The notes under the pieces were generated by a model. That model made no database searches. It was not told where the DNA came from and saw nothing but the letters and a program-made list of their open reading frames with translations. This document shows positions 1 through 18,129 of a DNA stretch of 18,129 nt, in pieces. The translations under genes and the position numbers were made by a program. The number at the start of each line of letters is the position of its first letter. Position 1 is the first letter of the stretch. This stretch comes from Thermodesulfobacteriota bacterium (GTDB lineage: Bacteria; Desulfobacterota_D; UBA1144; Nemesobacterales; Mycalebacteriaceae), in contig CBDAQI010000003.1 of assembly GCA_965198945.1 (NCBI GenBank), positions 1-18,129 of the forward strand. Reading direction: 5' to 3'.

Positions 1-746
1 CAGTAAACAATCCCACTGTCGCCACTGTGTTTTTCATTGATAAAATCAAGCAGAGCCCCCCTCGCCTCGCCGGACTCGTTTATGTTTATAGTGTAGAAAA
101 TGTTGGGTCGGTCGTAACCAGAAACATATTCTTCCGCTGAGCCCAGAACCAACCGGTCGGCAATTTCCCTCTGTGTCACTTTGTCGGCCGTTGCGGTGAG
201 AGCTATCCGCGGCACGGAGGGAAAACGGTCTGCGAGAACGGAAAGTTTCAAGTATTCGGGACGAAAATCATGACCCCAGCGTGATACACAGTGCGCCTCG
301 TCAATTGCGAAAAGCGCAACCGGTATTTTTTCAAGCTCCTCAAGTATCCCGCCGTTAAGCAGCCCTTCGGGCGCAACATATATCAAATCAAGATGTCCGC
401 CGAGCAGAGCTTTTTCGGTATCGCGGCGTTGCGTATATGACAGACTTGAATTCAGAAACGCGGCACGAACTCCGTATTGACGCAGTGAATCAACCTGATC
501 TTTCATAAGGGCAATAAGTGGGGAAATTACAACACCCGTTCCTTTGCGCACAATGGAAGGAATCTGGTAACAGAGAGACTTTCCGCCCCCCGTGGGCATA
601 ACAACAATGGCGTCTCTGCCTCTCAAAAGCGTTTGTATAATCTCCGCCTGACCGGGGCGGAAATCCGAAAAACCGAAATTCTCGCGCAAAATTTCAAGCG
701 CTTTCCCCAAACCGTCAGGCGGCGTCTGAGAAAAAACCGTTGACAT
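1..746 (-). CDS. recQ: ATP-dependent DNA helicase RecQ (5' part; runs off the window edge)
   Basis: Not in the ORF track; translated by hand from the ATG at 746: MSTVFSQ...FGFSDFRPGQAEII (motif 0), MPTGGGKSLCYQ (Walker A), SPLIALMKDQV (Ia), IDEAHCVSRWGHDFRPEY (DEAH + aromatic loop), ALTATA (III), GYDRPNI, SGIVY. Open to position 1. Confidence 0.97.
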   Translation of the reverse strand, partial: MSTVFSQTPPDGLGKALEILRENFGFSDFRPGQAEIIQTLLRGRDAIVVMPTGGGKSLCYQIPSIVRKGTGVVISPLIALMKDQVDSLRQYGVRAAFLNSSLSYTQRRDTEKALLGGHLDLIYVAPEGLLNGGILEELEKIPVALFAIDEAHCVSRWGHDFRPEYLKLSVLADRFPSVPRIALTATADKVTQREIADRLVLGSAEEYVSGYDRPNIFYTININESGEARGALLDFINEKHSGDSGIVY

Positions 747-817
747 AAACTTGATTCTACCCGCTTCGCATATTTTAGAACAAAACCTCACCGGCTTTAA
801 GGTAGAATAGAATTTTA

Positions 818-2375
818 ATGCCGCTATTTGACCATTTTGAACTGGAAATTTTCAACAACATCCTGGCGGGAATAGCCGAAGAAATGGGCAAGTGTCTGAC
901 GCGCTCATCTTTTTCTCCGAACATAAAAGAGCGGCGCGACCACTCATGCGCCATATTCAACTCACAGGGTGAAATGATAGCGCAGGCGGCGCACATTCCG
1001 GTCCACCTGGGCTCAATGTCTTTCTCCGTCGCGGCGGTTCTGCGGGAATGTGAAATTTCAGACGGTGATATTTTTATGCTGAACGACCCTTTCAAGGGAG
1101 GCACTCACCTGCCTGACATAACCTGTGTTCTTCCGGTTTTTACAAAAGGAAAACCGGAATTTTACATGGCCGTGCGCGCGCACCACACTGATGTGGGAGG
1201 AGAAACTCCCGGTTCAATGCCGCTTTCCACCGGCATACACGAGGAAGGAGTGATTATCCCGCCGACCCTGATTGCCCGAAAAGGAAAAATTGACAAACCC
1301 CTTTTGGAAAAAATCACTTCCGGCATGAGAAATCCGCAAGAGAGATTCGGAGACCTTAACGCTCAAATTGCTTCTCTTCAAACGGGCAGGAAAAGACTTC
1401 TTGAGACAATGGAAAAATACTCCGTGGAGACGGTTCGCGAGGCGGGCGCGCAGCTGCTTGACTATGGAGAGAAGATTATGCGGGAAGTTATCGGGGATGT
1501 TCCGGACGGTGAATACGAGTTTACGGATTTTCTTGATGATGACGGAGCCGGAACCGAAAATATACCGATAAAAGTCCGGTTGAAAATACAAGGGGACGGA
1601 GCGGAGGTAGATTTTTCCGGAAGTTCACCGCCTGTTAAAGGATGTCTGAACGCGCCTTTCAGCGTAACGGCATCAGCGGTTTTGTATGTTTTCCAATGCC
1701 TCGCTCCCGATGATATTCCCCTCAACGCCGGGCCGCTGAAAGCCATACGTATCATTACCGATAAAAGCTCAATACTGAACGCAAAATACCCGAGCGCAAT
1801 AGCGGGAGGCAATGTGGAAACCTCTCAAAGGGTTGCGGATACGGTGTTCGGCGCGGTTTCAAAAGCGGTTCCCGAAAAAATACAGGCGGCAAGTGCCGGA
1901 ACGATGAACAATGTGACTTTCGGCGGCAAGCGCGGCCGTGGGGAATTTGTATACTATGAAAACAATAGCGGGGGGAATGGGCGGAAGATTCGGGGCCGAA
2001 GGAGTTTCCGCCGTTCAGGACACATATGACAAACACACTCAACACACCAATAGAAGCAATTGAAAGAGAACTTCCTGTGAGAATTAAATCTTATTCAATA
2101 CGAAAAAAATCGGGAGGGAGAGGAAAGTTTAATGGAGGTGAAGGCATTGTAAGGGAATATGAATTTCTTGAAACCGGCCCACCGTTTCCATAATCACAGA
2201 GAGAAGAAAACACCGCCCGTGGGGAGTGAGCGGCGGCGAAGGCGGGAAAAGCGGAAAAAACTTCCTGATACGCGACGGAGAAAAAACCGAACTCAGCGCT
2301 AAGCGGAGTTTTGAAGCCGGGAAAGGCGATATCCTAAGAGTGGAAACTCCCGGAGGCGGCGGTTGGGGAAAATAA
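818..2375 (+). pseudogene. Hydantoinase B/5-oxoprolinase family subunit, interrupted by frameshifts near the 3' end (possibly consensus errors)
   Basis: Motifs SPNIKERRDHSCA, HIPVHLGSM, NDPFKGGTHLPD, HHTDVGG..PGSM, EEG, GGNVETSQR, GTMNN. The conserved tail continues in other frames: YYETIAGGMG (extra A in 1959-1962), QTHMTNTLNTPIEAIE (extra G at 2018-2019), TERR..PWG..GG (+2 near 2171-2180), ending VETPGGGGWGK-stop at 2375. Repaired length ~517 aa. Confidence 0.9.
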
Positions 2376-2992
2376 AGCGCGTATCCGCCCGCCTTTATTT
2401 TATAATTTTTCTGCTTTTTCTCGGTGGATGTGTCCCCGGTTATAAACCGCAGGATATCAACGATGCCTGCTCCATTCTCAAAAATAAAAGGGGGTGGTAT
2501 GGAGACGTTCTGAGAACGGAAAAGAGGTGGGGGGTTCCAATTTCCGTAACCATGGCTTTCATTCATCAGGAGTCAAGTTTCAGAAAAGGAGCCAAGCACC
2601 CGAGAAAAAAAATACTCTGGGTTATCCCATGGAAGAGAACCTCATCCGCTTCAGGCTACGCCCAGGCGGTTGACAAGACATGGAAACAGTATTTGAAAGA
2701 AACCGGAAAAGGCGGGCTTATGACGCGCCGGGGGGATTTCAAAGACGCAACTGATTTTATCGGCTGGTATAACAACAAAAGCTCAAAACTTCTCGGAATT
2801 AAAAAGGACGACGCCTATCGTCTTTATCTCGCCTACCATGAAGGATGGAACGGATACCGCAAAGGAAATTACAAAAAAAAGAAATGGCTTCTGGGAGTAG
2901 CAAAAAAGGTTGAAAAACGCAAGAAAACCTACCAGAACCAGCTAAACCGCTGCCGGAAAAACCTCAAAACAAAACGGTTTGGCATATTTTAA
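2363..2992 (+). CDS. Lipoprotein with lysozyme-like/transglycosylase SLT domain
   Basis: Basic N-terminus, hydrophobic stretch and lipobox LGG-C; WGVP..MAFIHQESSF (catalytic E-S motif), SSASGYAQA..TW, LYLAYHEG..GY. The start (TTG 2363) overlaps the upstream stop and is uncertain. Confidence 0.8.
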   Translation: MGKIKRVSARLYFIIFLLFLGGCVPGYKPQDINDACSILKNKRGWYGDVLRTEKRWGVPISVTMAFIHQESSFRKGAKHPRKKILWVIPWKRTSSASGYAQAVDKTWKQYLKETGKGGLMTRRGDFKDATDFIGWYNNKSSKLLGIKKDDAYRLYLAYHEGWNGYRKGNYKKKKWLLGVAKKVEKRKKTYQNQLNRCRKNLKTKRFGIF

Positions 2993-4185
2993 CTGTTTTC
3001 GCTGTCCGGCGCTTCAATCGCCATTGCCTCTATTTTATCCAGCGGTTTCTCAAGCGCCCGTGTGCGCGTTGTAACAAGCGTTTGGAAATCGCCGCTCAAC
3101 CCCTCAATACGCCGTCCGAGTTTGTCCATCTGTTCAACATACTTGCCCCACTGCTCGCGGAATTTTTCCACCAACGCCATTACCTCCGATGCGCGCTCAT
3201 TCAATACGAAGCTGCGTGCGGCTTGATGAATCAGCGACAACACTGCGTAAAGCGTCAAAGGGGAACACAGCAGCACGCGGCTTCTAAGGGCGTGGTCAAC
3301 AAGTTCGGGGGCGTTCTCGTTGATGAAACCGTAGACCGACTCATTTGGAATAAACAGCATTACATAGTCCAGTGTGCCTTCCGCCGGGTTGATGTATTCG
3401 CGCCCACACACCGTATTAACATGGTTGCGTACATCGCGTAAAAAACTTTTTTGTTCCTGCACCCGCGCCTCATCGCTTTCCGCGGACAGATAACTTCTGT
3501 AATGGTCCAACGGAAACTTGACATCCATGTTCAGCCGCTTGTCGCGCGGCAAAAGAAAGGTGTAGTCCGGGCGTTGCCCCGACTCCACGGACTCCTGATG
3601 GGTGTAGTTAATGCGCTCAACCAGACCCACCGACTGCAAAATATCCTTCACCATCCGCTCTCCCCACTGTCCGCGCTGTCGTGATGATGACAAAATCTCG
3701 CTCAGTTTTGCGGTGTTTTCGTTGAGGTTTTTTGTGTTTTCGCTGTGCGTGTCCATGCTTGTTTTCAGTTCGGTTGACTGTTTGTGCAGTCGGTTGAGCG
3801 TTTCCTTCATATTTGACAGGTTTTCGTCAATGAGTTTCTTTTTGGACTCCAACTCTTTTTCCGAAACTTCCTTCAACACCTTAAACTGCTCATTCGCCTG
3901 TTTTAAAAACTCCTCTGAATTGCTTTTTGCTATGTTCGCCGCCATCACCTTGAATGTGTTTTCCATCTGCTCGCAGATTTCATTCAGACGCGCTTTTTCC
4001 TCCTCAAACCGCAATTGAGCGTTTTCCAACTTTGTACGCACGACCGTTTCGGCTTCGCGCGACTCGCTTAATTCAGTTTCAAGATTGGCAATTTTTTCCA
4101 AATACGCCGCCGGTTCAGTCCGCGCCCGCCACAACCAGCCGAACGCAAAACCGGCAACCGCCGCAATGACTATCAATATTTCCAT
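2989..4185 (-). CDS. rmuC: DNA recombination protein RmuC
   Basis: N-terminal TM helix, long coiled coil, RGQWGE, RPD..LP..MDVKFP (PD-(D/E)XK), YI.P..TLDYVMLFIPNE, SPLTL.A.L. Confidence 0.93.
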   Translation of the reverse strand: MEILIVIAAVAGFAFGWLWRARTEPAAYLEKIANLETELSESREAETVVRTKLENAQLRFEEEKARLNEICEQMENTFKVMAANIAKSNSEEFLKQANEQFKVLKEVSEKELESKKKLIDENLSNMKETLNRLHKQSTELKTSMDTHSENTKNLNENTAKLSEILSSSRQRGQWGERMVKDILQSVGLVERINYTHQESVESGQRPDYTFLLPRDKRLNMDVKFPLDHYRSYLSAESDEARVQEQKSFLRDVRNHVNTVCGREYINPAEGTLDYVMLFIPNESVYGFINENAPELVDHALRSRVLLCSPLTLYAVLSLIHQAARSFVLNERASEVMALVEKFREQWGKYVEQMDKLGRRIEGLSGDFQTLVTTRTRALEKPLDKIEAMAIEAPDSENS

Positions 4186-4229
4186 TGTTTTGCCCTTTTA
4201 CTTTTCTGTTATTATATCGGCTTATCAAA

Positions 4230-5353
4230 ATGGACGAAAAAACGTGTTTCATTGCTCTCAGCTCCATCAAAGGGCTCGGCAACGTTCTTATAAGACGACT
4301 GGTGGAGGGGTGCGGTTCGGCCGGAAATGTTTTTGAGAAAGCGGGCGCCTCCGGGGCGCTTTCCGGGATTGACGGAATCGGGACCGAAACGGAAAACCTT
4401 GTCAGAAATTTTCTCCGATTGGAAAAAGGCGGAACAAAAAGCCGCAGAAGTAGTTGGTAAGGGTTTTTGAGCTTATTACTTTTTCGGATGACAACTATCC
4501 TGAAAATTTGAAACACATACACTCCGCCCCGCCCGTTTTATACGTTTTTGGAGAGATAAAAAAACAAGACATCCTTTCCATTGCGGTAGTGGGGTCGCGC
4601 TTCTCAAACAAATATGGAAATGACACCGCACACAACTTTTCATCAGAACTTGCCGCAATGGGCGTGTGCATAGTAAGCGGAATGGCAAGAGGGGTTGACT
4701 CCACCGCCCATAAAGCGGCCATTGATGCGGGCGGGCGCACAATAGCGATTCTCGGAAGCGGGCTTGATGTTATATATCCGCCGGAAAATCACGAACTCTA
4801 CGAAAAAATAGCGAAGAACGGAGCCGTAGTCTCAACTTTTCCACTTGGAACCGGGCCCGGAAAAACAAATTTCCCTGAACGCAACACCTTCATAAGCGGG
4901 CTTTCTCTCGGAACCGTTGTTGTGCAGGCCGCGGGAAAAAGCGGGGCGCTGCTTACCGCTTATCTGGCCCTTGAGCAGAACAGGCATGTGTTTGCCGTGC
5001 CGGGCAGAGTCGGAGATAAAATGAGCGCGGGAACCAATTTTCTTATCAAGGAAAGTCTTGCGAAACTTGTGGAAAACACGGATGACATAGTTAATGAAAT
5101 CTCCGACTTTCAGAAATTAAGAAGCGGTCGGGAGGAAGAAAAATCGGCAGAGTCACGCGGAAAGAAACTCGCCTCACTGCCGAAAGCAAAGAGAAGACTG
5201 CTTTCCCTTATAACGGAGAAGCCTCTGCATATTGATGAAATCTCAGAAAAATCCGGCGAAGCGGTGTCATCAATTTCCACGCAGATGCTTGAGCTTGAAA
5301 TTGAGGGCCTCGCCCAACAAATTGAAGGGGGACTGTATCAGGCAGAAATCTGA
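4230..5353 (+). pseudogene. dprA: DNA-protecting protein DprA (Smf), with two +1 frameshifts in the N-terminal part (possibly consensus errors)
   Basis: ATG 4230 gives a SAM/HhH-like N-terminus (LSSIKGLG..GIDGIG). Removing one T at 4409-4412 and one at 4464-4468 gives NFSDWKKAEQKAAEVVGKGFELITFSDDNYP, which joins the core (IAVVGSR, VSGMARGVDSTAH, GSGLDVIYP, FPERN..ISGLS, SGALLTA) and the C-terminal winged helix (LELEIEG). Repaired length 373 aa. Confidence 0.93.
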
Positions 5354-5367
5354 AAAACAGGCGTTGT

Positions 5368-5620
5368 TCACAAACGAAAGGTGATTTTCAGCAAACTGCT
5401 CTCTATTTTGACGCCCTTAAAAAGAGCCCGCAATCTTTTCTTTGATGCTGACTTCACCAAATTGGCAAATCAGACGGTTGTCCAAAAGTCTCGTCATCAC
5501 TTCTTTCCATTAAAGAAATATCGTTTTTGAATCAGTGTCGTAAGGAATCTCAGTCTCGGCGTAAACTTTGCTTTCAAGCATATCCCAGCAGAAAGAGCGC
5601 AACTATACAAATTAAAGATG
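5368..5620 (-). pseudogene. Decayed paralogue of the 6710..7249 DUF1439-like gene
   Basis: Hand translation gives LESKVYAETEIPYDTDSKTIF (vs LKSEVYAETKIVYDAESQTVS), then after a deletion LLDNRLICQF..KEKIAG and LFKGVKIESSLLKITF (vs LLDSRPIYRL..EERIAGALLKNIKVENGFLKIIF), broken by stops and frame changes. Confidence 0.75.
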
Positions 5621-5641
5621 CTTTTTATCAGATAGACCGCA

Positions 5642-6655
5642 TTAGAAAAGACTGTATTTGAAACTAACAGCCGCGCCCCAGAACTGTGTGTTGTCGATTT
5701 CGCTTCTGTATGTTATAAGATTGCTTCTGCCGCCAAGGTCGGGGTTGTCTTCGGGACTTACGGTTGAAGCATGGTCTCTGAGAACATCCCATGTCTCAGG
5801 GTCACCTTTAATCTTGCCGAAATAGGCCCAGCGGAGTTTCAGCCCCGCAGACAGCCTTTAGGACAGGGAGTAGTCGAATCCCAGCAGAACCTGGAAGCCA
5901 AACAGGCCGTCTTCGTGGTTTCTACGGGAATAAGATACCGTTCCTTCTAAAGGTCCAATCACACAGTCATTTGCAGGTGTCGGGTCATCATCTCTTCCGC
6001 ATAGAGCGGAAGAATTATCTCCGTTGTCGTTTCTTTGGAAGAAATTTAGCAGGTCAGCTTTTGTTTTTGACCATCCGACCCCGCCCCCCAGATACGGAGT
6101 GAACTTTGTATCGGTTTGCAAATCATAATACAGATTGGCAAAAATATTGTGCGACTGCACACCTCCGAACCGTCCATATGCCTGCCCGCCGGCCGAGGGA
6201 ACAAATTCGGATAATTTACCTCCTGAAACAGTGACCGGAGCACGTTTATCAAACTCATTGTTGCGGTAAAAATACTCAAACTCAGCCCTTACCGGAAGGC
6301 CCCATATGCGCCCATACCCAACTGTCAACCCAACCGTATGTCCCAAGCTTGTTTTGTTATAATCCTGCCTTAAGTGAGTGCCGGGAAAATCCACGCAACT
6401 GGGATTGCCCGAATCCGCACGAAAGGCGGATGCATCCGCGGGAAAGCCTGCCTGCCCAGCATAGTGTAAATCACATCGGGAAGGAATGCCGTTATTATGA
6501 TTATCAACCTTAATCCCAGTTGCCAGTGTCAAACCTGCGTCCAGACCTAAATACGGACCGCTCATTGTTTCACTGGACATCATTCTTTCGGCGCCTTGTA
6601 CCGCCTGAAAGGACAATAATACAAATAAAATCAATGATAAGACAACTCTTTTCAT
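5642..6655 (-). pseudogene. Outer-membrane beta-barrel protein (OmpA-transmembrane/opacity-like, 8-stranded) with an in-frame TAA at 5858-5860
   Basis: Signal peptide from ATG 6655 (MKRVVLSLILFVLLSFQAVQGA), GPYLGLDAG, VGYG..VRAEFEYFYR, FANLYYD..FTPYLGGGVGW, FGFQVLLGFDY. After the stop the same frame continues RLSAGLKLRWAYFG...FWGAAVSFKYSLF-stop (5642), with a terminal Phe typical of BAM substrates. Confidence 0.8.
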
Positions 6656-6709
6656 CCTGGAACTATAACACAAAAGCTGTGAGAAAAACTATAGGGGAAA
6701 ATCTGGAAG

Positions 6710-7249
6710 TTAAGGTCCGAAGATAATTTTCAGAAAACCGTTTTCCACTTTGATATTCTTTAAAAGCGCCCCTGCAATCCGTTCTTCGGTTTTTTCTGAG
6801 TTCAAGCGGTAAATGGGTCTTGAGTCTAAAAGTTCCGGTATCACCTTTCCGACGGTTTCACGGACAACTTTTCCCGCTTCGGGCGGAAGTCCCTGTATAC
6901 GCAACTTTCTCAGCCTGGTGTCCGAAAATGAGACTGTTTGAGACTCCGCATCATAGACGATTTTAGTCTCGGCATAGACCTCGCTTTTCAATTTTTCAAC
7001 ACCGGAGAGAAAAACGGATATGTCGCAGGAGAAACCTATGTGGTCGTTTCCTTTTTCAAGGTGAATTTGAGGATTTGAAAGAACAGTTTTTACAAAAAGA
7101 AGATTTGTCTTTTCATATGGAAACTCTTTTTCAATAAGACTTTGTATCTGCTCTTTTTTGATGCTGATTTCAAACTGAGGCTTTGCCAGAAACAAGTATG
7201 CCGCAACCGCAAACAGCAAAACAAGAGCAATTAAAAAGATTTTTTTCAT
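6710..7249 (-). CDS. DUF1439 (YceB-like) membrane-anchored/periplasmic protein
   Basis: N-terminal anchor, IS..QIQ..IEKEFPYEK, LSNPQI.L, YD, ..L..RPIYRL, I.VENG.L.I. Upstream TATAAT and GGAG Shine-Dalgarno. Confidence 0.7.
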   Translation of the reverse strand: MKKIFLIALVLLFAVAAYLFLAKPQFEISIKKEQIQSLIEKEFPYEKTNLLFVKTVLSNPQIHLEKGNDHIGFSCDISVFLSGVEKLKSEVYAETKIVYDAESQTVSFSDTRLRKLRIQGLPPEAGKVVRETVGKVIPELLDSRPIYRLNSEKTEERIAGALLKNIKVENGFLKIIFGP

Positions 7250-7334
7250 CTTGACTCCATTTGGAAAGAATGCGCATTATATCCCAACCCGTTTCTTCAC
7301 GCAAGGCTTCGGCCTATTGCAATCCAACCCGGTT

Positions 7335-8114
7335 TCACAGAAAGAAATTAAGAGATGTTGTGTATGTAAAGTTCGTCTTTTTAATTGAAGCGTTTGCCGG
7401 TTTATTTTCATAATCCAGACCGGCTGTAAGAGTCAAAGACAGGGTCTCGGTCAGAATAATTGAAAAAGAGGCTTCGTTTTCACTTCTAAAATCTTTTGTC
7501 TCCGTCGGGGGAAGAACAAATACGGAAGACACGGATATCTTCATGCCGTCCATTTCTTTGTCAGCCCCGGCTCTAAAGTGGAATGTGGCAAGGTTGGTGG
7601 TCGGGGCGGAAATGAAGTCTTCTCTCTCCCAGAAAAGAAGAACACTTGAATAAGCTTTCAGTGACGGAGAAAGAGAAAAATCCGCCGTCAGACCCCCTCC
7701 CAAACCGGAACGGAGAGAAATGAGGTCAATTTCATCACTTTCCAGAAAGGAACTCAGATTTAAAAACACCGATTCAACTTTGGGACTGGAATCAAAAGAC
7801 TTCAGTTTATGCAGATAAGCCAAATCCAGACGCCAGAGATCTTCATTTGTAACGCCGTCCACTTTGCCGAATTCATACTTGGCAGTGTTTGTAAACCTGT
7901 CCTTCTCACCCTCAATTTCATAGCAATATCGGAGCCCGATATCAGTTTTGTCCGTGGTGCCTTTTGAACCGGAAAAAGAAGCGCCCGTGGAAAATTCCCA
8001 GTTTCTCAAATCCGAATCGCCGATTTTGCAGGTGCCCGCAAGAACTTTCTGAGGCGGAAACATGAGAAACGAAACGAAAAGCGCTACAAAAAAAATGCTT
8101 TTGATAATTGACAT
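7335..8114 (-). CDS. DUF481 (YdiY-like) outer-membrane beta-barrel protein
   Basis: Signal peptide; GASFSGSKGTTD, YEFGKVDG, E.D..I.LRSGLGGGL, DFRSENE, LDYENKP..KKT..YTTSLNF; amphipathic beta strands throughout. Confidence 0.72.
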   Translation of the reverse strand: MSIIKSIFFVALFVSFLMFPPQKVLAGTCKIGDSDLRNWEFSTGASFSGSKGTTDKTDIGLRYCYEIEGEKDRFTNTAKYEFGKVDGVTNEDLWRLDLAYLHKLKSFDSSPKVESVFLNLSSFLESDEIDLISLRSGLGGGLTADFSLSPSLKAYSSVLLFWEREDFISAPTTNLATFHFRAGADKEMDGMKISVSSVFVLPPTETKDFRSENEASFSIILTETLSLTLTAGLDYENKPANASIKKTNFTYTTSLNFFL

Positions 8115-8836
8115 GGGGGTGGATTATACGCAATTTTTCAAGTTTCTTGCCGTCTTTAGTTTTGAGTTTGTTTTCGGCGCTGTCCGCGGCGGCGATAATA
8201 ACATCATCCCGCAACTCTGGCGGTATGTCCCGCAGGAAGGGAGCGGCAAAATTCTTAAGCCAGCCCGCAACATCGGTCGGAAGCGGCGTGTTTCTGTCAA
8301 AAACTTTTAATTCAACAACTTCAAATCCATTTCTCTCAAGCCGGTCGCAATAATCATCCCCGGCGGGAAAATCCCACGGGTTGTAATCATCGCCGTTGAG
8401 ATTGAATTTTTGCAGCTGCTCATAAACAGCGTCAACTATCGTCCGGACATTGTTTTTTGCCCCGAATTCGGCGCAAAAACGTCCACCCGGCTTCAAAGCT
8501 CTGTAAACATTGGATAGAACGGCGTCAGAATCCGGCATCCAGTGCAAAACGGCATTGGAAAAAACCGCGTCAAAATCGCCGCTGAATTCCATTTTTTGCG
8601 CGTCAACAACACGGGAGTCAAGCCCTTTTGCCCGTGGCGGAGACCATTTCCGGGCTGCTGTCAATCCCGACAACCTCACAGCCGTATTCGGCTATTTTGC
8701 TCATTAAAACTCCCGTGCCGCAGCCGACATCCAAAATCACCTCGCCCGCACGGGGCGCGAGCAAATTAAGAACCCCGTCCGCGCGCTGCCAGACATATGA
8801 GGCGTTGCGTTCGTAATCAGAGACGTTCCAGTCCAT
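7942..8836 (-). pseudogene. Class I SAM-dependent methyltransferase (Tam-like), frameshifted at ~8635; homology ends near 8147
   Basis: MDWNVSDY..ILDVGCGTG (motif I)..VGIDSSPEMV in one frame, then RAKGLD..FDAVFSNAVLHW..ALKPGGRF.AEFG..NV..PW.FP in another. The W-x-ADYVRLR-like tail I expect for this family is absent, and the frame runs on into the DUF481 gene to 7942. Confidence 0.85.
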
Positions 8837-8872
8837 AGTTTCAAGTTTGTAATTTACAACAATTTTTTAAGC
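8768..8872 (-). repeat. Methyltransferase 5' end plus upstream region, copy A (native)
   Basis: Aligns with 12264-12367 and 11346-11417; shared upstream TTGTAATT(T/C)ACA..TTTTAAG on the + strand. Confidence 0.9.
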
Positions 8873-8931
8873 TGGGAAACATAATTACTTCAATCGTTAC
8901 GGGGCGAAAGAATCAACCATTAGTGTAATTG

Positions 8932-9031
8932 TCAGGGCGACACAATTATTGTAACTGACAAGAAATTATCGACTAGCAGGCGTAAACAGTCATAATCTCT
9001 TAGGTTAGGATGAATTAAGTATTGTCCCCGG
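8932..9031 (+). repeat. ~100-bp intergenic repeat ending in recombination-site-like core 1 (TTAGGTTAGGATGAATTAAGTATTGTCCCCGG)
   Basis: Aligns end to end with 13446-13546 (GACACAA.TATTG.AACTG.CAA...ATTAT.G...TAAAC.G...AGGTTA.GATGAATTAAGTATT..GTCCCCGGA) and partly with 12387-12462. Confidence 0.88.
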
Positions 9032-9078
9032 AGTTCCCCCAGAATTCTGACGGGATATATCTTGAAGTTCCAACAAAC

Positions 9079-9109
9079 TTGAGTATGGTGAATCTGAGAA
9101 TACAATTCT
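9079..9109 (+). promoter_or_regulatory. Putative sigma70 promoter of bfr with an overlapping inverted repeat
   Basis: TTGAGT (9079-9084), 16 nt, TACAAT (9101-9106); the AGAAT-aca-ATTCT palindrome at 9097-9109 overlaps the -10. Confidence 0.4.
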
Positions 9110-9119
9110 ACAAAAAAGG

Positions 9120-9620
9120 ATGGAAATAATAGACAAAGAAACAACTCTTAAAAATCTTCAAACGGCTCTTGCTATGGAATTAACCTCCGTACATCAATAT
9201 CAGCTGCATGCAAGTGTTCTTGAAGGCTGGGGTCTCAATCGCCTTGCAGCGCAGATGCGCAAAGAAATGCAGGAAGAATTTAGTCATTCTGATAACTATA
9301 TCAACCGTATGATGTTTCTTAAAGGAGAGCCGAATCTTGTTCTTGCAAAACCTCCGATACTTGCCGACTCTCTTGCTCAAATGTTTGAGTCTGATTTGGC
9401 GGATGAGAAAGAAGCCGTTGCTTTTTACACTGCCGCGGCTCGCCAAGCCAATGAAGTGGCTGACATTGGCTCTCAATTACTTTTCGAGCGCACTGTTGCA
9501 GATGAGGAGGGGCATATGGGATGGCTTGAACTTCAACTCGACATTCTTAAGAAAATGCGTGAAGCTCTTTATATTTCTAAACATATGTCACCACCTCAAG
9601 AAGCAAATGATAGTGATTAA
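9120..9620 (+). CDS. bfr: Bacterioferritin (BfrA/FtnA-type, lacking the heme-ligand Met52)
   Basis: ELTSVHQY.LH...WGL..LA, EMQEEFSH, R.MFLKGEP, DLADEKEA..Y, DEEGH..WLE.QL; all ferroxidase-centre residues are present; 166 aa. Confidence 0.9.
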   Translation: MEIIDKETTLKNLQTALAMELTSVHQYQLHASVLEGWGLNRLAAQMRKEMQEEFSHSDNYINRMMFLKGEPNLVLAKPPILADSLAQMFESDLADEKEAVAFYTAAARQANEVADIGSQLLFERTVADEEGHMGWLELQLDILKKMREALYISKHMSPPQEANDSD

Positions 9621-9933
9621 TTTTCTGCGGCTTAAAAATATCAAAGCGAGGTTGAATTGCTTGTCTTTATTTAAGAGCTGCAAAGAATTTAGCAAGAATG
9701 AAAACCTTATTAAGAGAAAGTCTTTTAACAGTTAATAGGTGAAGGAGAAGACAAAAAATACTATAGCTACCCTGAAGATGAAACTAATTTTATCAAAATA
9801 CTTAAGGATTGTAAGGGATCTGTAAAAAGAATAAAGCGTAAAATTGATGCAGATTGAAAAAGTGAATAAAACCCCGGGTCGCAATATCAAAAAGAAAAAA
9901 CCAGGCTGAAAGCATCAACCATAAAGCGGGAAC

Positions 9934-11121
9934 TTATTTAGGCAAAGTCTTATACAATACCCAGTAGCCGAACATACAGGAAATAAAAGAACCTATCAGG
10001 ATGCCAAGACGATCGTCAAAGATCATATCGTGGGCACCGCTCTCGAAAGCCAGCGAGCTGATAAACAGGCTCATGGTAAAACCAATACCGCACAAGGCGC
10101 TGACTCCATACAGCCGCACCCAACCAATACCGTCGGGAAGGGTCGCCAACCCTGAGCGGATCACCGTAAAACACGCAAGCATAATACCAATTTGATTGCC
10201 CAGCACCAGCCCGGCGGCAATTCCCAACGGCACCGGATGTAAGATCATTTCCAGCGACAAGCCGGTCAGCGCAATACCGGTGTTGGCAAACGCAAAAACC
10301 GGCAAAATGAAAAACATCACCAAGCCATAGAGATCATGCTCCAATGATTCCAGCAATGTTTTCCTGGCGCCTTCCACGGCCACATGAGGGATGAAAAATG
10401 CGGCAATCACCCCGGCGAGGGTCGCATGCACACCTGATTTCAGCACAGAAACCCATAGTGCGACGGCAAGCAGCAAGTATGGCGAAAGTGATTTAACTCC
10501 GCGCCGGTTCAGGATGAACAACGCCAGAATAAAAAGGCCGCCCATGCCGATAGCTCCAAGTGATAAGCCTTTTGTATAAAAGAGAGCAATCACCAGAATC
10601 GCGCCAAGATCATCAATAATCGCCAGGGTCATCAGAAACAGCTTCAATGACTTTGGCACCCTGTCTCCCAACAAGCTCAGAATGCCAAGCGCGAAAGCAA
10701 TGTCGGTGGCTGATGGAATAGCCCACCCGACCATAGCTTCTGGATCACCATAATTGAAAGCCGTATAAATCAATGCCGGCCCCAACATACCTCCGACCGC
10801 GCCAGCGCATGGAAGAATCAGGACATGTCTATTGCTCAACTCACCTCCAAGAACTTCACGTTTGATCTCCAAGCCGACGAGAAAGAAAAAAATCGCCATC
10901 AGACCGTCGTTGATCCACAGCAGCAAGGGCTTGGAAATGCCCAAATCCCCGACACTCACAGAAAAATTCAAAGATAGCAGGGAATCGTATAACGCCGAAA
11001 ACGGCGAATTCTTGACTAACAGAGCGGCGAAAGTCGCCGCAATCAGCAATAAACTTGGAGCGGACTTACTCTGCAGAAAATCACTCATCAGACCAAATTT
11101 TGAACTGCCGGATGTTCGCAC
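9934..11121 (-). CDS. nhaA: Na+/H+ antiporter NhaA
   Basis: WINDGLMAIFFFLVGLEIKRE, GWAIPSATDIAFALG, LAIIDDLGAI (ion-binding DD), SGVHATLAGV, LCGIGFTMSLFI. Start is GTG 11121 or ATG 11088. Confidence 0.97.
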   Translation of the reverse strand: MRTSGSSKFGLMSDFLQSKSAPSLLLIAATFAALLVKNSPFSALYDSLLSLNFSVSVGDLGISKPLLLWINDGLMAIFFFLVGLEIKREVLGGELSNRHVLILPCAGAVGGMLGPALIYTAFNYGDPEAMVGWAIPSATDIAFALGILSLLGDRVPKSLKLFLMTLAIIDDLGAILVIALFYTKGLSLGAIGMGGLFILALFILNRRGVKSLSPYLLLAVALWVSVLKSGVHATLAGVIAAFFIPHVAVEGARKTLLESLEHDLYGLVMFFILPVFAFANTGIALTGLSLEMILHPVPLGIAAGLVLGNQIGIMLACFTVIRSGLATLPDGIGWVRLYGVSALCGIGFTMSLFISSLAFESGAHDMIFDDRLGILIGSFISCMFGYWVLYKTLPK

Positions 11122-11345
11122 TATGCTCTTGACCCCCGAAAAATAGGATGGCGGAATTTTCGGAAACTAACATAAAACCAATTAGGCACAGGTATTGAAT
11201 TCAGACACTCTATTTGTCCTTCATTCAGTATTTTACATCTAGCACAGCAAATAAGGAACAAGCAAAACCGGAAAAAGTAATTTTCAAAGCAAGTTCAGGA
11301 AAAACCTCATAAAAAACAAAAACCAAATACACAGCCATATAAAAA

Positions 11346-11417
11346 AGGTGTTGTGTCGGCAGTCGGAGACTTTCCAATCCGTATTTTGAGTTTGTAATTT
11401 ACATCAAGTTTTTAAGT
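11346..11417 (-). repeat. Methyltransferase 5' end plus upstream region, copy C (degraded; start codon now ACG)
   Basis: AGGTGTTGTGTCGGCAGTCGGAGACTTTCCAATCCGT aligns ungapped to AGGCGTTGCGTTCGTAATCAGAGACGTTCCAGTCCAT (27/37), followed by ATTTTGAGTTTGTAATTTACA..TTTTAAG. Confidence 0.8.
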
Positions 11418-11471
11418 CTGTAGCGTAAGTGAGACACAATTAATGCTCCACAACTTTGCGAAGTCGGAGCG

Positions 11472-12332
11472 TCAGAAGCGTCGCGAAAGACCCAAACCGA
11501 AAGTAAACTGATCTTTGTCGTGCGTAACCGGGCTGTTCGCGGCGTCATCAATCAGCCGGTCATATGAAAAGAGTGCTGTTGTGCTCCAGTTACGGTTGAA
11601 GCTGTAAGCAGTTAGCAGCCCGGCGCCGACTGTCTTGAAACCCGCGTCGGCGCTGAATGCCGGCAGTCCGGAACTGCGTGCCTGTCCCGGTGTAACGCCG
11701 AAATACGCATCCATGTATTCGCCACTTGCGTAGCTCGCCGACAGGCCCGGGATCAGGAACCAGCCATTTCGCAAATGACGGAAAACCTCAAACCCGAAAT
11801 CAAAAAAATAGCCGGTGTCGTCACCCGTAAACTGATGGCTGAACCGGGTCGAGAATGAAAATCCCCGGTGGCGGATATCCGCTTTCACAATACCGACCGC
11901 TCCGCCATCTATATCTCCCAGCCCTTTCAGATCATTGGATTTGTCGTGATCGCGGCCGAACATGTAGCCGACCGATGCGGACAGAGATAGCGTGCGGTCA
12001 TCCCAGACATACACGCCCAAACCGTCGAGGGTGTCAAGGAAGATACTATCGCGCCATTTGATGTATATTATAGGAAATCCTGTAACTTCGTAATCTTCTG
12101 AACCTTCATACTCCGGCTTGATGATGCCAAAGGCGCCAAGAGTAAATGACCAGTCCGATTTTGGTCCGTTGAGCGGACCGTATTCGGCACCTCCTGCAGT
12201 GGAGGTTGCCAAAAGCACCAGAGCAAACACAAGGGCAATGCTCCTTCCGCAGACTGTCCCAACAAGAAACCCATCAGCACGCTGCCAGACAGATGAGGCG
12301 TTGCATTCGTAATCAGAAACGTTCCAGTCCAT
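11472..12332 (-). CDS. MipA/OmpV family outer-membrane protein; the first 23 codons derive from the methyltransferase gene
   Basis: FTLGA..IKPEYEGSEDYEV..FP, LKGLGDIDGG, YASGEYMDAYFGVT..QA..SGLP.F.A.AGF, YDRL..DAANSP, terminal GLSRRF; signal-peptide h-region ALVFALVLLATSTAGGA. Confidence 0.92.
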   Translation of the reverse strand: MDWNVSDYECNASSVWQRADGFLVGTVCGRSIALVFALVLLATSTAGGAEYGPLNGPKSDWSFTLGAFGIIKPEYEGSEDYEVTGFPIIYIKWRDSIFLDTLDGLGVYVWDDRTLSLSASVGYMFGRDHDKSNDLKGLGDIDGGAVGIVKADIRHRGFSFSTRFSHQFTGDDTGYFFDFGFEVFRHLRNGWFLIPGLSASYASGEYMDAYFGVTPGQARSSGLPAFSADAGFKTVGAGLLTAYSFNRNWSTTALFSYDRLIDDAANSPVTHDKDQFTFGLGLSRRF

Positions 12333-12367
12333 ATTTTGAGCTTGTAATTCACACCGGGTTTTTTAAG
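12264..12367 (-). repeat. Methyltransferase 5' end plus upstream region, copy B (fused in frame to mipA)
   Basis: 62/69 nt identical to 8768-8836 over the coding part (MDWNVSDYECNASSVWQRADGFL vs MDWNVSDYERNASYVWQRADGVL), plus a similar upstream segment. Confidence 0.93.
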
Positions 12368-12386
12368 TGAGTAGTGTATAAAAACC

Positions 12387-12462
12387 ACAAAAAATTACCA
12401 CTTGGTAGACATAAACAGAAATAATACTTTAGGTTAAGAATGAATTAAGTATTGTGTCCCGG
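12387..12462 (+). repeat. Intergenic repeat ending in recombination-site-like core 2 (TTAGGTTAAGAATGAATTAAGTATTGTGTCCCGG)
   Basis: ACAAAAAATTA..TAAACAG..ATAAT..TTAGGTTA.GAATGAATTAAGTATTGT aligns with 8958-9031. Confidence 0.88.
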
Positions 12463-12507
12463 TAATTAACCGGAAATATCCTTTCTATGTGCCGATATAT
12501 TGAGAAG

Positions 12508-13359
12508 TCATTCTTGGATACTTGTTATCTTGTATTTGCCTTTCGTACGCACATAAATTATTACTTCGTCGGACGATTTGGATGAAACCTGATGTACCCA
12601 CTCTCCCTTTGAGCTAAAGTAGCTGCCGGGATTTAAGGTATCGGGTTGGGTTGCCAAATACTGCAGTTGCCCCTTGATTACAACAGCGCGGAAGGGCGAA
12701 GCGTTGCTATGTATTTTTCCCCTAAACCCGGCCGGAAGTTTGACAAAAGTTCCGTTAGGTTGATCATCTTGTAGTTTACCCCAAAGATAGGCTATCTCAG
12801 GCCCGTTGGTGGAATTTTGCATTCCGGGCGGGCTCAGCCAAACTATGTTTGATGCATCCACGTTGACCGGTCTTTCACCGCTATCAAAAGCCTTCTTAGG
12901 AGAAAGCACCAGATACGGCCCCTTGTCAATTTCGACAAGCGCCACGTTTTTACCACCTTTAGCGGCGGTAATATGGACTTCACCTTTGGGCTGGGTCCAG
13001 AAAGAACCCGCAGGCATCCACATTTTAGCGGCGCTGGGGTCATCATTGTGAATGAGGCCATCAATAACTACAGCACGATAAGTAGCATTGTGAATATGGG
13101 GAGGCGACGAGAAGCCATCCACAAACTTGACGAGAAAACCCGTAGGAGCGGAAGATTTGCGATCACCCCAGAGCGTTGCGGCTTGAGGGCTTTTGTCACC
13201 ACGGGCAGGGTTGAGTTGCTCCCACTTGACCTCGGACAACAGGACAACCTTGAAGGACGGCTCTATTCTCAAACCGGAGGGGGTGATGTTAGATAAGGTT
13301 TGCGGGCCGGCACAACCGGCGGCCACTATATATAATGAGAATGTTAATAATGCCCTCAT
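12508..13359 (-). CDS. DUF4437 cupin-domain lipoprotein
   Basis: [64 protein letters not shown]; lipobox AAG-C. ATG 13359 is preceded by GGAG (the ORF track starts at TTG 13374). Confidence 0.87.
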
Positions 13360-13387
13360 ATTTTTACTCTCCAATTATTGGGGAATT

Positions 13388-13410
13388 CCGGAAATAAGAT
13401 ACTTAACTCA
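13388..13410 (-). repeat. Inverted copy of the recombination-site-like core
   Basis: Reverse complement TGAGTTAAGTATCTTATTTCCGG matches TGAATTAAGTATTTTGTCCCCGG (13524-13546) at 18/23, and is followed by AATTCCCC like the AGTTCCCC after core 1. Confidence 0.7.
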
Positions 13411-13445
13411 ACTATAGCCCCAAAACGGCAAAACTTGCAAGTATT

Positions 13446-13546
13446 TCAAGAGACACAACTATTGCAACTGTCAAAAGATTATTGCCTGACGAAAATAAAC
13501 GGCACAACACTTCAGGTTAAGAATGAATTAAGTATTTTGTCCCCGG
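13446..13546 (+). repeat. ~100-bp intergenic repeat ending in recombination-site-like core 3 (TCAGGTTAAGAATGAATTAAGTATTTTGTCCCCGG)
   Basis: Full-length alignment to 8932-9031; 22-nt exact match AGGTTAAGAATGAATTAAGTAT with core 2. Confidence 0.88.
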
Positions 13547-13609
13547 ATTACCCGAAACCAGCCATATTACTTTACTTTTTATTAGTGCTAAATACCATTA
13601 AAGAGCATT

Positions 13610-14290
13610 ATGCCTCTCCCCGCCGACCCCTCCAGTCTGGTCGTGCTTGGTTTTGCACTTCTGTCACCGGCAGTGCTCCTCCTAATCCTCTACGGCGCTT
13701 ACCGCGTGCGGGCATTGCGTCCCACGGTTGTTGTCGGAGCCGTTCTCTGGGCGGGTCTTGGTGCCGGCCTCGCGGCATCGGGTGTTCTTGCCCACTTTGA
13801 CCCACCCCGCCTGCTCGTGCTCCTAGTGTTGGGCACGGCCCTCATGCTGTGGTTCGGTCTCAGGGGCCCCGGTCAGCGCATGGCGATGGAACTCCCCCTG
13901 GCGGCATTGATCGCCTTTCAGGTATTTCGCATACCGGTGGAAATCCTAATCCATCACGCCGGTATGGAAGGCATCGCGCCCATGGAGATGAGCTGGAGCG
14001 GTTACAATTTTGACATTCTCACCGGACTCACGGCGCCTATCGTGGCCATCCTCGCCAAGAAACTGCCGGTCCGGGCTCTCCACTTCTGGAACTTCACCGG
14101 CCTATTCCTGCTACTTTGGGTCGTGAGCATCGCGGTGCTGGCGATGCCTTCACCTTTCCAACAACTCGCCACGGACCCGCCCAACATCTGGGTCGTGCAC
14201 TTCCCCTTCGTTTGGCTGCCCACGATCCTCGTCTTGTCAGCCGGCCTCGGGCACCTTTTGGTCTACCGGCGCCTCAGCGCAACCAAGTAA
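13610..14290 (+). CDS. Uncharacterised multi-pass membrane protein
   Basis: About 6-7 hydrophobic helices; motif-like segments QVFRIPVE, P.EMSWSGYNFDILTGLTA, WN, P.PFQ, PN..V..FPFVWLP. Visibly GC-richer than the flanks, with C/G-ending codons. Confidence 0.82.
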   Translation: MPLPADPSSLVVLGFALLSPAVLLLILYGAYRVRALRPTVVVGAVLWAGLGAGLAASGVLAHFDPPRLLVLLVLGTALMLWFGLRGPGQRMAMELPLAALIAFQVFRIPVEILIHHAGMEGIAPMEMSWSGYNFDILTGLTAPIVAILAKKLPVRALHFWNFTGLFLLLWVVSIAVLAMPSPFQQLATDPPNIWVVHFPFVWLPTILVLSAGLGHLLVYRRLSATK

Positions 14291-14464
14291 CACCCACCGA
14301 CCGGGAAGCACTTCTGTTCAACCTTTTTCTGGACAGAGATAATGACCTCCTCAGTGCCCCGATTGAAATGGATTATCTTGAAATCCACCGTGGTCTCGGT
14401 GGTCTCCTCCCAGTTTGAGCGAAACAGTGACCATTGGACAAGTCGCGGACACATTACCCTTGAT

Positions 14465-14557
14465 ATTGTGAATTACGCTACGTATCCACTCATCTTTGAT
14501 AATCTGACGGTCGGAACGGCGTTTTCTAATGTGCTGAAAATAGCGGGAAAACTTCAT
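14465..14557 (-). pseudogene. Truncated 5' end of a small toxin-like gene (DUF4258/BrnT-RelE-like, tentative)
   Basis: MKFSRYFQHIRKRRSDRQIIKDEWIRSVIHN resembles the N-terminus of a small family I recall as MKxTxYF..RxRPDR..IK.EWI..V..P..Q.DGR.R.W...VHNAFFDR. The expected C-terminal half is missing. Confidence 0.5.
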
Positions 14558-14664
14558 TGATTTAATCAATCCAACCAAAAATACAACGGCAAACTCAAGG
14601 CAGGGGGAAATAATAAAACAAAAGACAAATATTTGGCAATCGGAAAACCATACAACTCAATGAC

Positions 14665-14698
14665 TTGGGTCAGGATGAATTAAGTATTGTGTTCCCAG
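14665..14698 (+). repeat. Recombination-site-like core 4 (TTGGGTCAGGATGAATTAAGTATTGTGTTCCCAG)
   Basis: Shares AGGATGAATTAAGTATTGT (19 nt) exactly with core 1. Confidence 0.85.
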
Positions 14699-14712
14699 AA
14701 ATCACTCAGAAC

Positions 14713-14868
14713 TTAAGACTTTCTGCCCCAAAACCAGACGGAGAGCCCTGAAGAAAGCGCTACCATAGCGCCAAAAAGCCAACCTGTTACAGCACCGCTT
14801 TTCATCAACATAAGAAGAAAGAAAACAAAGAAAAATACTATGACAGAGAATAATTTATTTTTATTCAT
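14713..14868 (-). CDS. Small two-helix membrane protein (51 aa)
   Basis: Below the ORF-track cutoff; MNKNKLFSVIVFFFVFFLLMLMKSGAVTGWLFGAMVALSSGLSVWFWGRKS-stop, with basic ends flanking two hydrophobic segments and TAAAAT just upstream. Confidence 0.55.
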   Translation of the reverse strand: MNKNKLFSVIVFFFVFFLLMLMKSGAVTGWLFGAMVALSSGLSVWFWGRKS

Positions 14869-14894
14869 TTACAGATTTATTTTATTGCAACAAC

Positions 14895-15024
14895 CCAAAT
14901 ACAAAAACTAAACGAATAAGAAACAACGTCCATCTTCCGGCTCATCTTTATTCCCGGCCCTTTTTCAAGGGGTATGCTTTCACGGGAAATGACAAGCGGA
15001 GTTTCAAGTGGTTTTAAGCCCCGT
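14895..15024 (-). promoter_or_regulatory. 3' arm of the pre-23S processing stem
   Basis: CGAATAAGAAACAACG (14913-14928) is the exact reverse complement of 18086-18101; 15001-15015 pairs with 18063-18076; 15018-15024 pairs with 18052-18058. Confidence 0.85.
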
Positions 15025-18050
<3,026 letters not shown>

Positions 18051-18129
18051 AACGAGGCATAAAAAACACTCGAAACAAGATGGCGCGTTGTTTCTTATTC
18101 GCTCAGCTATGTATTCAGTTGTCAAAGAA
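18051..18129 (-). promoter_or_regulatory. Spacer upstream of 23S: boxA-like antitermination element and 5' arm of the processing stem
   Basis: The minus strand begins TTCTTTGACAAC (boxA-like, 18118-18129), followed by sequence complementary to 14895-15024. Confidence 0.75.

Follow-up and report, generated by a model that had tools for sequence, protein, structure and literature searches.

Putative TIRYT-type terminal repeats, probably multiplied by target duplication, in a variable gene array beside the 23S rRNA gene of a Thermodesulfobacteriota bacterium

Terminal inverted repeats (TIRs) with the consensus GGGGWSAS have been described for TIRtrons and TIRYT-associated repeats (Di Nocera et al., 2013, PMC3733652). 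The TIRYT-associated families correspond to subclass 2.1 of the TnpA-Y1 proteins, whose motifs are given in Table 1 of Quentin et al. (2018, PMC6006769), and to group 1 of the RAYTs (Bertels et al., 2017, PMC5581495). Subclass 2.1 RAYTs are reported from about 15% of strains (PMC6006769), and cleavage and binding of TIRs by TIRYTs are proposed as future work (PMC3733652). A different class of short repeat is formed by dif sites, with an 11+6+11 layout, and by pdif modules, which are bounded by inversely oriented sites (PMC10132070). Here we analyze a stretch of 18,129 nucleotides (nt) from a Thermodesulfobacteriota bacterium (assembly GCA_965198945.1, contig CBDAQI010000003.1, positions 1 to 18,129; "the window"), in which a short repeat punctuates an array of unrelated genes next to the 23S rRNA gene. 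An earlier note had taken the repeat for a dif-like site and the array for the product of gene capture by a tyrosine recombinase. Our analysis suggests that the repeat is very probably a terminal repeat of the TIRYT type, and that the array probably consists of orphan TIRYT-family elements whose number grew by target duplication at a hotspot that already existed.

The repeat contains a 14-mer, ATGAATTAAGTATT, that is found at 9010, 12440, 13523 and 14675, always on the plus strand and always in intergenic DNA. Four copies compare with a mean of 0.15 in shuffled sequences, none of 200 shuffles reached four, and this part of the earlier note was confirmed. Two further exact copies are present elsewhere in the source genome (G000; 1.39 Mb in 14 contigs, designated C1, C4, C9 and so on; 95% complete). 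In contrast to the description in the note, each 14-mer belongs to the right arm of a gene-less unit of about 100 nt with inverted ends, present in about ten copies in G000. According to an alignment of the flanks, the unit comprises an outer left arm, GGGGACACAATTATTGCA, which is inverted relative to the right arm, an interior with partial conservation, the right arm itself (GATGAATTAAGTATTGTGTCCCC) and a tail reading GGAATT. The consensus of 23 copies has GGGGACAC at both ends. An inner left arm is weak (7.5/14, barely higher than the 6.6/14 of shuffles), and mean identity of the interior is 50% (21 copies).

A sequence-only element model, trained on nine copies (five from G000, four from congeners), detected nine strong copies in G000 at E<1e-6, at least five of them outside the window on contigs C4 and C9. 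At E<=0.05 it detected eight copies in G005, two each in G003 and G004, one in G002 and none in G001, and it matched 7 of 120 genomes of the phylum. The repeat is not confined to the window. Viral contigs held no match to a 21-mer of the right arm, and plasmids held nothing matching element E3 (Table 1). Metagenome contigs held no match to two element-specific patterns, and therefore no close strains were obtained.

The right arm provided the identification. Its 21-mer matches at least 120 loci in the genome collection, spread over many phyla (Gamma- and Alphaproteobacteria, Omnitrophota, Elusimicrobia, Planctomycetes and others). In 72 of the 117 listed loci with enough upstream DNA, the arm forms a palindromic doublet with an inverted partner no more than 150 nt away. 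Among 80 long loci examined, the sole recurrent open reading frame (ORF) family touching the motif was an HUH-Y1 protein of about 220 amino acids (five loci), and at loci L012, L016, L034, L060 and L076 the arm flanks TIRYT genes on both sides as inverted repeats. TIRYT/RAYT (HUH-Y1) sequence was present in 8 of the 120 listed loci, within 220 nt in seven of them, five of the eight having supplied the probes. A tyrosine recombinase was present in none of the 120, of which 41 are under 1 kb. The association with Y1/RAYT genes that the earlier note had mentioned as an aside is the right identification.

In an alignment, the flanked enzymes show NHVH or NHTH and a Y---NP motif (YIExNP), as in subclass 2.1, and the L034 protein matches Pfam Y1_Tnp. 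The arm itself fits GGGGWSAS, and gene-less dimers or singles are dispersed in intergenic DNA, as expected of TIRYT-associated repeats. On the strength of these sequence features, we regard a TIRYT-type terminal repeat as very likely, and this arm's exact sequence may already be in print among the TIRs of Di Nocera et al. (2013). The consensus has neither the 5' GT[AG]G foot of REPs and REPINs nor a stable stem-loop. Elsewhere in the order, the TIRYT relatives of other families have different TIRs, of the GGGGACGC or GGGACAG type. A full-text literature search for the motif returned unrelated papers only among the matches listed.

No transposase gene lies inside the units, which are thus not autonomous TIRtrons. 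With the L034 TIRYT as query, one 30-33% match was obtained in each of five of the six congeners and none in G004, and the cognate type was not found. The matching protein is a different, longer Y1 with a C-terminal helix-turn-helix (HTH) domain and a GGGTCAGG flank. This resident gene (G000:C11:6414-7259; L006:994-1839, minus strand) is fixed between purD and ccmC in five congeners and is the sole Y1_Tnp match in G000, where it encodes a His at the position of the catalytic Tyr. The Tyr is also replaced in G001, G003, G005 and G012 and kept in G002, and G007 and G012 have an altered HUH motif. We rejected the resident Y1 as driver of the elements, as it is of another type, has another flank and lacks the catalytic Tyr. 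It keeps one upstream GGGTCAGG-type repeat, and may be a domesticated, catalytically dead Y1 acting as a DNA-binding protein.

The genes between the copies (bfr, nhaA, mipA, a DUF4437 gene and a membrane protein gene) are unrelated, of mixed orientation and of differing composition, as the earlier note had described, with a GC content at third codon positions (GC3) from 0.33 (bfr) to 0.73 (membrane protein gene). How the array was built is suggested by the adjoining methyltransferase gene, whose duplication the note had overlooked. In a self-BLAST, about 100 nt of its 5' end (8768-8871) recur at 12264-12367, immediately before E2 (85%), and at 11346-11416 (79%). Together with element sequence, this 5' end is present three times (8768-9039, 11346-11446 and 12264-12470), the second copy ending 16 nt into the left arm of the element. 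Because the combination occurs in three copies, E1, E2 and the left-arm stump appear to stem from segmental duplication on either side of the bfr-nhaA and mipA genes as these came in, and not from independent transpositions. The mipA gene is fused in frame to the third methyltransferase copy via its first 23 codons and has thereby acquired a start and upstream region, by all appearances a clear case of start and promoter capture. Left flanks are also common to a pair of copies on C4 (C4a/C4b, about 75 nt) and to a pair on C9 (C9a/C9b, about 40 nt). Short local duplications also exist without the element, for example at C1:59220/61709.

Comparison with relatives, which are only about 70-75% identical at the DNA level, indicated that the position itself is variable. 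The genes directly downstream of the 23S gene differ in all six congeners, including where the element is absent. The order is omp-element-DUF4437 in G003 and element-UDG-like gene in G005; G002 has at most a faint element remnant (E 0.21), and in G001 and G004 the genes vary without any element being present, the methyltransferase gene of G004 also lacking an element upstream. In three complete relatives the locus is 52-81 kb from dif, i.e., in the terminus region. The terminus region is often variable.

Read evidence came from contigs of four runs of one study. One contig of run X1, which may be the source sample, covers 1-15186 without substitutions, so the arrangement did not arise in assembly; over most of 7963-12827 it is also matched by low-depth contigs of a second sample. 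A joint 9032->14676 in X1 and X2 (side 24 nt) was considered as an excision product and rejected, being best explained by two C9 copies, which match E1 at 23/25 and E4 at 20/24 positions.

We favor, as the probable history of the array, orphan elements multiplied in a hotspot. An ancestral TIRYT transposase would have made a gene-less derivative of about 100 nt, which would have spread by single-strand nicking and strand transfer, reactions that TnpA-REP performs in vitro; the enzyme would then have been lost and the copies would have decayed. Today the copies are found between genes, in some cases as plain insertions and in others within variable islands. Foreign genes would have entered repeatedly at the 3' end of the 23S gene, an insertion hotspot presumably already present in the whole genus. 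On at least two of these occasions the target segment, made up of the methyltransferase 5' end and the element, would have been copied during single-crossover or template-switch repair, multiplying the repeat in one orientation and fusing mipA to the methyltransferase start. As part of this history, the repeat would for the most part be a passenger, could at best serve as a homology anchor, and would not be the substrate of a dedicated recombinase.

Gene gains elsewhere are in part consistent with a passenger role. We compared G000 with all of G003 and the first 1.2 of 1.4 Mb of G002, using simple ORF calling; this yielded 87 accessory islands, an approximate and probably too high number, of which 6 contain the element and 81 do not. 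Three plain insertions carry no cargo (G000 C4:10011-10115; G005 after clpX; G005 before a dehydrogenase-like gene, which we take to be UDP-glucose-dehydrogenase-like). On C4, a methyltransferase gene was gained between tRNA-Lys and tRNA-Leu, with no element between the gene and either tRNA. The variable gene content behind the capture array of the earlier note was confirmed at the locus, but a dedicated capture array was not: 81 of 87 islands are without the repeat, two congeners vary without the element, and several insertions are plain. That the repeat helps new genes to enter is only a weak hint.

Several findings nevertheless weigh against a mere passenger. Despite the decay of the interior, the right arm matches the canonical TIR better (11.9/14) than the outer left arm does (9.1/14), with copies partly found via the right arm. 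The adjacency of element and DUF4437 gene was kept between G000 and G003 while the left neighbor changed, and in G003 the element abuts the DUF4437 3' end. Two gains are species-specific: in G003, the element plus 2.6 kb (a YadA-like adhesin gene and a small gene) is inserted at a site that is uninterrupted in G000, G001, G002 and G005 and coincides with a contig break in G004, and in G005, the element plus about 0.6 kb is inserted where the other five genomes are contiguous. In both, the left arm lies 11-15 nt from the breakpoint, with the cargo beyond the right arm. Copies are enriched in island gaps (9 of 142, compared with 1 of 157 core gaps; Fisher p=0.008), yet they represent only five loci. 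Finally, G000 is 95% complete, and a cognate transposase could lie in a gap.

Some of these observations feed the leading alternative, a polar landing pad at the conserved right arm. There, a TIRYT, past or acting in trans, would nick the outer end and join incoming foreign single-stranded DNA; the far end would be repaired beside the nick, giving a simple gain, or upstream, duplicating the element and its left flank, so that the array would be a record of HUH-driven capture. TnpA-REP cleaves single-stranded DNA near REPs and joins a 3'-OH attacker (PMC8266576). The same polarity in two of two clean species-specific gains, the better conservation of the right arm and the enrichment in island gaps all fit, as do the flanks, which are shared on the left in three within-genome pairs, the sole strong right-flank match being between orthologous copies. 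On the other side, no competent enzyme was found in the genus, most islands lack the repeat, and the three plain insertions brought no cargo. The stump junction at 11446 breaks within the left arm and not at the right arm. On C4, two copies bracket a module of exonuclease and zeta-like ATPase genes that congeners also carry: it is matched wholly or partly near the 16S gene in all five, and no element is reported at its place in G001, G002, G003 and G005. Counted by locus, about 7 of the 10 that could be scored are associated with islands, compared with the 54% of the G000 gap length that islands hold. No empty or rearranged allele was seen in the contigs of the four runs, although contigs drop rare variants, so that circles are possible. 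On this evidence we consider a landing pad unlikely for this array. The wider proposition, that TIRYT repeats are polar entry points at which HUH-Y1 enzymes ligate foreign single-stranded DNA, forming integron-like arrays without a recombinase of which the window is a fossil, seems slightly more doubtful still. By that proposition, the conserved arm would face the cargo, and some captures would have duplicated the element together with its left flank. G000 is a poor test bed for capture, given that no competent enzyme turned up and that close strains are missing. Among the matches listed by a literature search on gene capture by HUH or RAYT enzymes, no paper dealt with capture by TIRYTs.

Co-option of the elements as regulatory DNA (terminator, mRNA-end hairpin, promoter or protein-binding site) would explain their place beside gene ends, many copies lying 0-75 nt from a stop codon or 12-90 nt before a start. 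Conservation of the arm without a transposase, and the HTH domain retained by the catalytically decayed resident Y1, point the same way. However, the copies fold no better than shuffles (z -1.5 to +0.9; no significant hairpin), neither candidate helix shows covariation beyond shuffles (both are about 80% paired), copy positions are mostly species-specific with none in G001, and the resident Y1 is flanked by a different motif, all of which makes a regulatory role improbable. A structured RNA or single-stranded DNA hairpin under selection was likewise rejected, given the shuffle-like folds, the lack of covariation and an Rfam scan of 8000-15100 that found the 23S rRNA alone.

The least tenable explanation is that of the earlier note, which takes the sites to be dif-like and has XerC/XerD or some other tyrosine recombinase act on them in trans, as happens in pdif modules. 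In its favor, the repeat separates unrelated genes and G000 encodes two tyrosine recombinases (PF00589), neither of them on the contig of the window. The dif candidate of G000 itself is at C13:40155-40174; its TAA-6-TTATGTTAA type is present in six of six genomes of the genus and, in complete G003, is found at 686 kb beside the GC-skew peak (660-680 kb bin). The sites in the window match this candidate at just 12-15 of 28 positions. The core claimed in the note (arm-TAA/TAG, 6-7 nt spacer, TTA-arm) did not survive alignment, as only 1 of 23 aligned copies, and not one of the four in the window, has TAA-N6-TTA geometry, and the 11+6+11 layout is missing. The bases left of the arm are not conserved among the listed outside loci, and the supposed left Xer arm, said to resemble an XerD arm, is therefore merely the spacer of this lineage. 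Unlike the boundaries of pdif modules, all four strong copies in the window are direct repeats. With the true dif elsewhere and different, and with the outside loci devoid of tyrosine recombinases, the Xer explanation therefore fails and retains hardly any probability. An integron is no better supported: the only PF00589 genes of G000 are the two on other contigs, and the repeat has no significant hairpin.

A second dif-like site of G000 (C1:238285-238304) has an intact XerD-type arm and a different spacer, and G002 also holds two dif-like sites, 6 kb apart.

Table 1. Elements, duplicated segments and genes between the methyltransferase and 23S rRNA genes (window coordinates).
Feature	Position	Strand	Remarks
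Class I S-adenosylmethionine (SAM) methyltransferase 5' end + upstream region	8768..8871	-	Pfam; template of duplicated flank
Element E1	8933..9039	+	Outer left arm from 8935, interior, right arm core 9010-9031, GGAATT-like tail; E 2.7e-20
Bacterioferritin-like gene (bfr), accessory	9120..9620	+	GC3 0.33; no syntenic ortholog in G002/G003
NhaA Na+/H+ antiporter gene, accessory	9934..11121	-	Family match, island comparison
Decayed second methyltransferase 5' copy (11346-11416), then element left-arm stump (11431-11446)	11346..11446	+	
mipA gene	11472..12332	-	First 23 codons = duplicated methyltransferase start
Element E2	12369..12470	+	Left arm decayed; right arm core 12440-12462; E 1.9e-18
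DUF4437 gene	12508..13374	-	Same place in G003, elsewhere in G004
Weak solitary arm (fifth site of the earlier note)	13380..13423	-	E 0.02; 15.6 bits
Element E3, best preserved	13448..13553	+	Left arm from 13450; right arm core 13523-13546; E 1.8e-22
GC-rich membrane protein gene, unnamed family	13610..14290	+	GC 0.61, GC3 0.73
Small-gene remnant, like partner of a DUF2283 gene	14351..14578	-	tblastn 68-83% over ~30 aa (amino acids) to G001, G004
Element E4, most diverged	14598..14706	+	Right arm core 14675-14698; E 3.1e-18
23S rRNA gene	15023..18129	-	Rfam sets 3' end at 15023; BLAST to congeners; variable region directly downstream

The right arm of E1 carries a 2-nt deletion. The methyltransferase gene, which starts at 8836, is frameshifted and falls into two pieces (8618-8836 and 7942-8679). 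Relative to the X1 contig, the window has six single-base indels (1959, 2018, 2173, 2178, 4409 and 4464), and assembly error is the probable cause of the frameshifts seen in dprA and in the hydantoinase B gene. The frameshift of the methyltransferase gene, located between 8618 and 8679, lies outside this set and agrees with contigs of three runs.

The fifth, inverted copy that the earlier note had placed at 13388-13410 is weak, with E=1.3 in a first search and E=0.02 with the element model. It is nevertheless probably a real decayed arm, as judged from its score on a matrix built from other genomes (15.6 bits, reversed-genome maximum 11.8). It is overlapped by a 24-nt stretch (13408-13431) that resembles signal-peptide codons of the DUF4437 gene of the G003 type; 5 of 2000 shuffles were as good. 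A breakpoint at the left arm of E3 relative to G003 was rejected in local alignment, where 88 of 300 shuffles were as good, and only the 24-nt match stands.

The membrane protein gene has no Pfam or NCBIfam match; its ESM Atlas matches are unnamed clusters, most commonly from Bacteroidota (score 0.95), and serve as a lead only. The small-gene remnant, labeled a toxin remnant in the earlier note, has no family match in Pfam or NCBIfam either. Its resemblance is to the gene that precedes a DUF2283 gene in G004, where the two adjoin, and a fragment of a bacterial toxin-antitoxin system is probable.

The 16S and 23S genes seem to be unlinked (window 15023-18129 and G000:C4:~61300-63100; about 315 kb apart in complete G003), and 5S was not found in the 7 kb after the 23S gene. 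Both rRNA flanks are variable regions holding the element. Near the other end of the window, rmuC (2989-4185) is 22-28% identical to rmuC at the same position in four congeners, with 65-78% for its neighbors, and was possibly replaced in place. In G007, from another family, an element (within L226:6344-8034) abuts two genes 74-75% identical to G000 genes, other matched neighbors reaching 44-68%; transfer of flank and element together is possible. Other small repeat families of G000 (ATTCCCG...CGGGAAT-type palindromes) are clustered at C10:5917-26580, C11:24314-29700, C13:237500-241401 and C9:1928-2521, and contig C8 (1-13402) consists of near-identical tandem units of about 4 kb (99%).

The repeat is a new lineage-specific addition to a described but barely studied class, and a caution against taking motifs of this kind for dif sites. 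Were the capture model true, it would supply a function for subclass 2.1 RAYTs and an HUH-based route of gene acquisition.

Among known systems, dif sites and pdif modules share with this locus the short repeats between unrelated accessory genes, but here the 11+6+11 layout is absent, the orientation is direct and not inverse, and the sites do not resemble the dif of the host. Integrons and capture by IS91/ISCR elements or Helitrons resemble it as arrays of unrelated genes and, were the right arm a landing pad, as one-ended HUH-based capture; the window differs from them in having no integrase, no attC hairpin, mixed gene orientation and no Y2 transposase seen in the window. REPINs and REP doublets of RAYT groups 2 and 3 are likewise non-autonomous inverted-repeat doublets tied to an HUH-Y1 enzyme, whereas the element described here is without a GTAG/GTGG foot, has arms that do not self-fold, and numbers about ten copies instead of hundreds. 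The closest likeness is to the TIRYT-associated TIR families, with which it shares the GGGGWSAS arm, the inverted repeats or dimers around genes of the subclass 2.1 type, and the moderate number of gene-less dimers in intergenic DNA. It departs from them in its asymmetric ends, in a shared, lineage-specific interior of about 60 nt with no cognate gene found, and in copies that were apparently multiplied by local duplication together with their flank.

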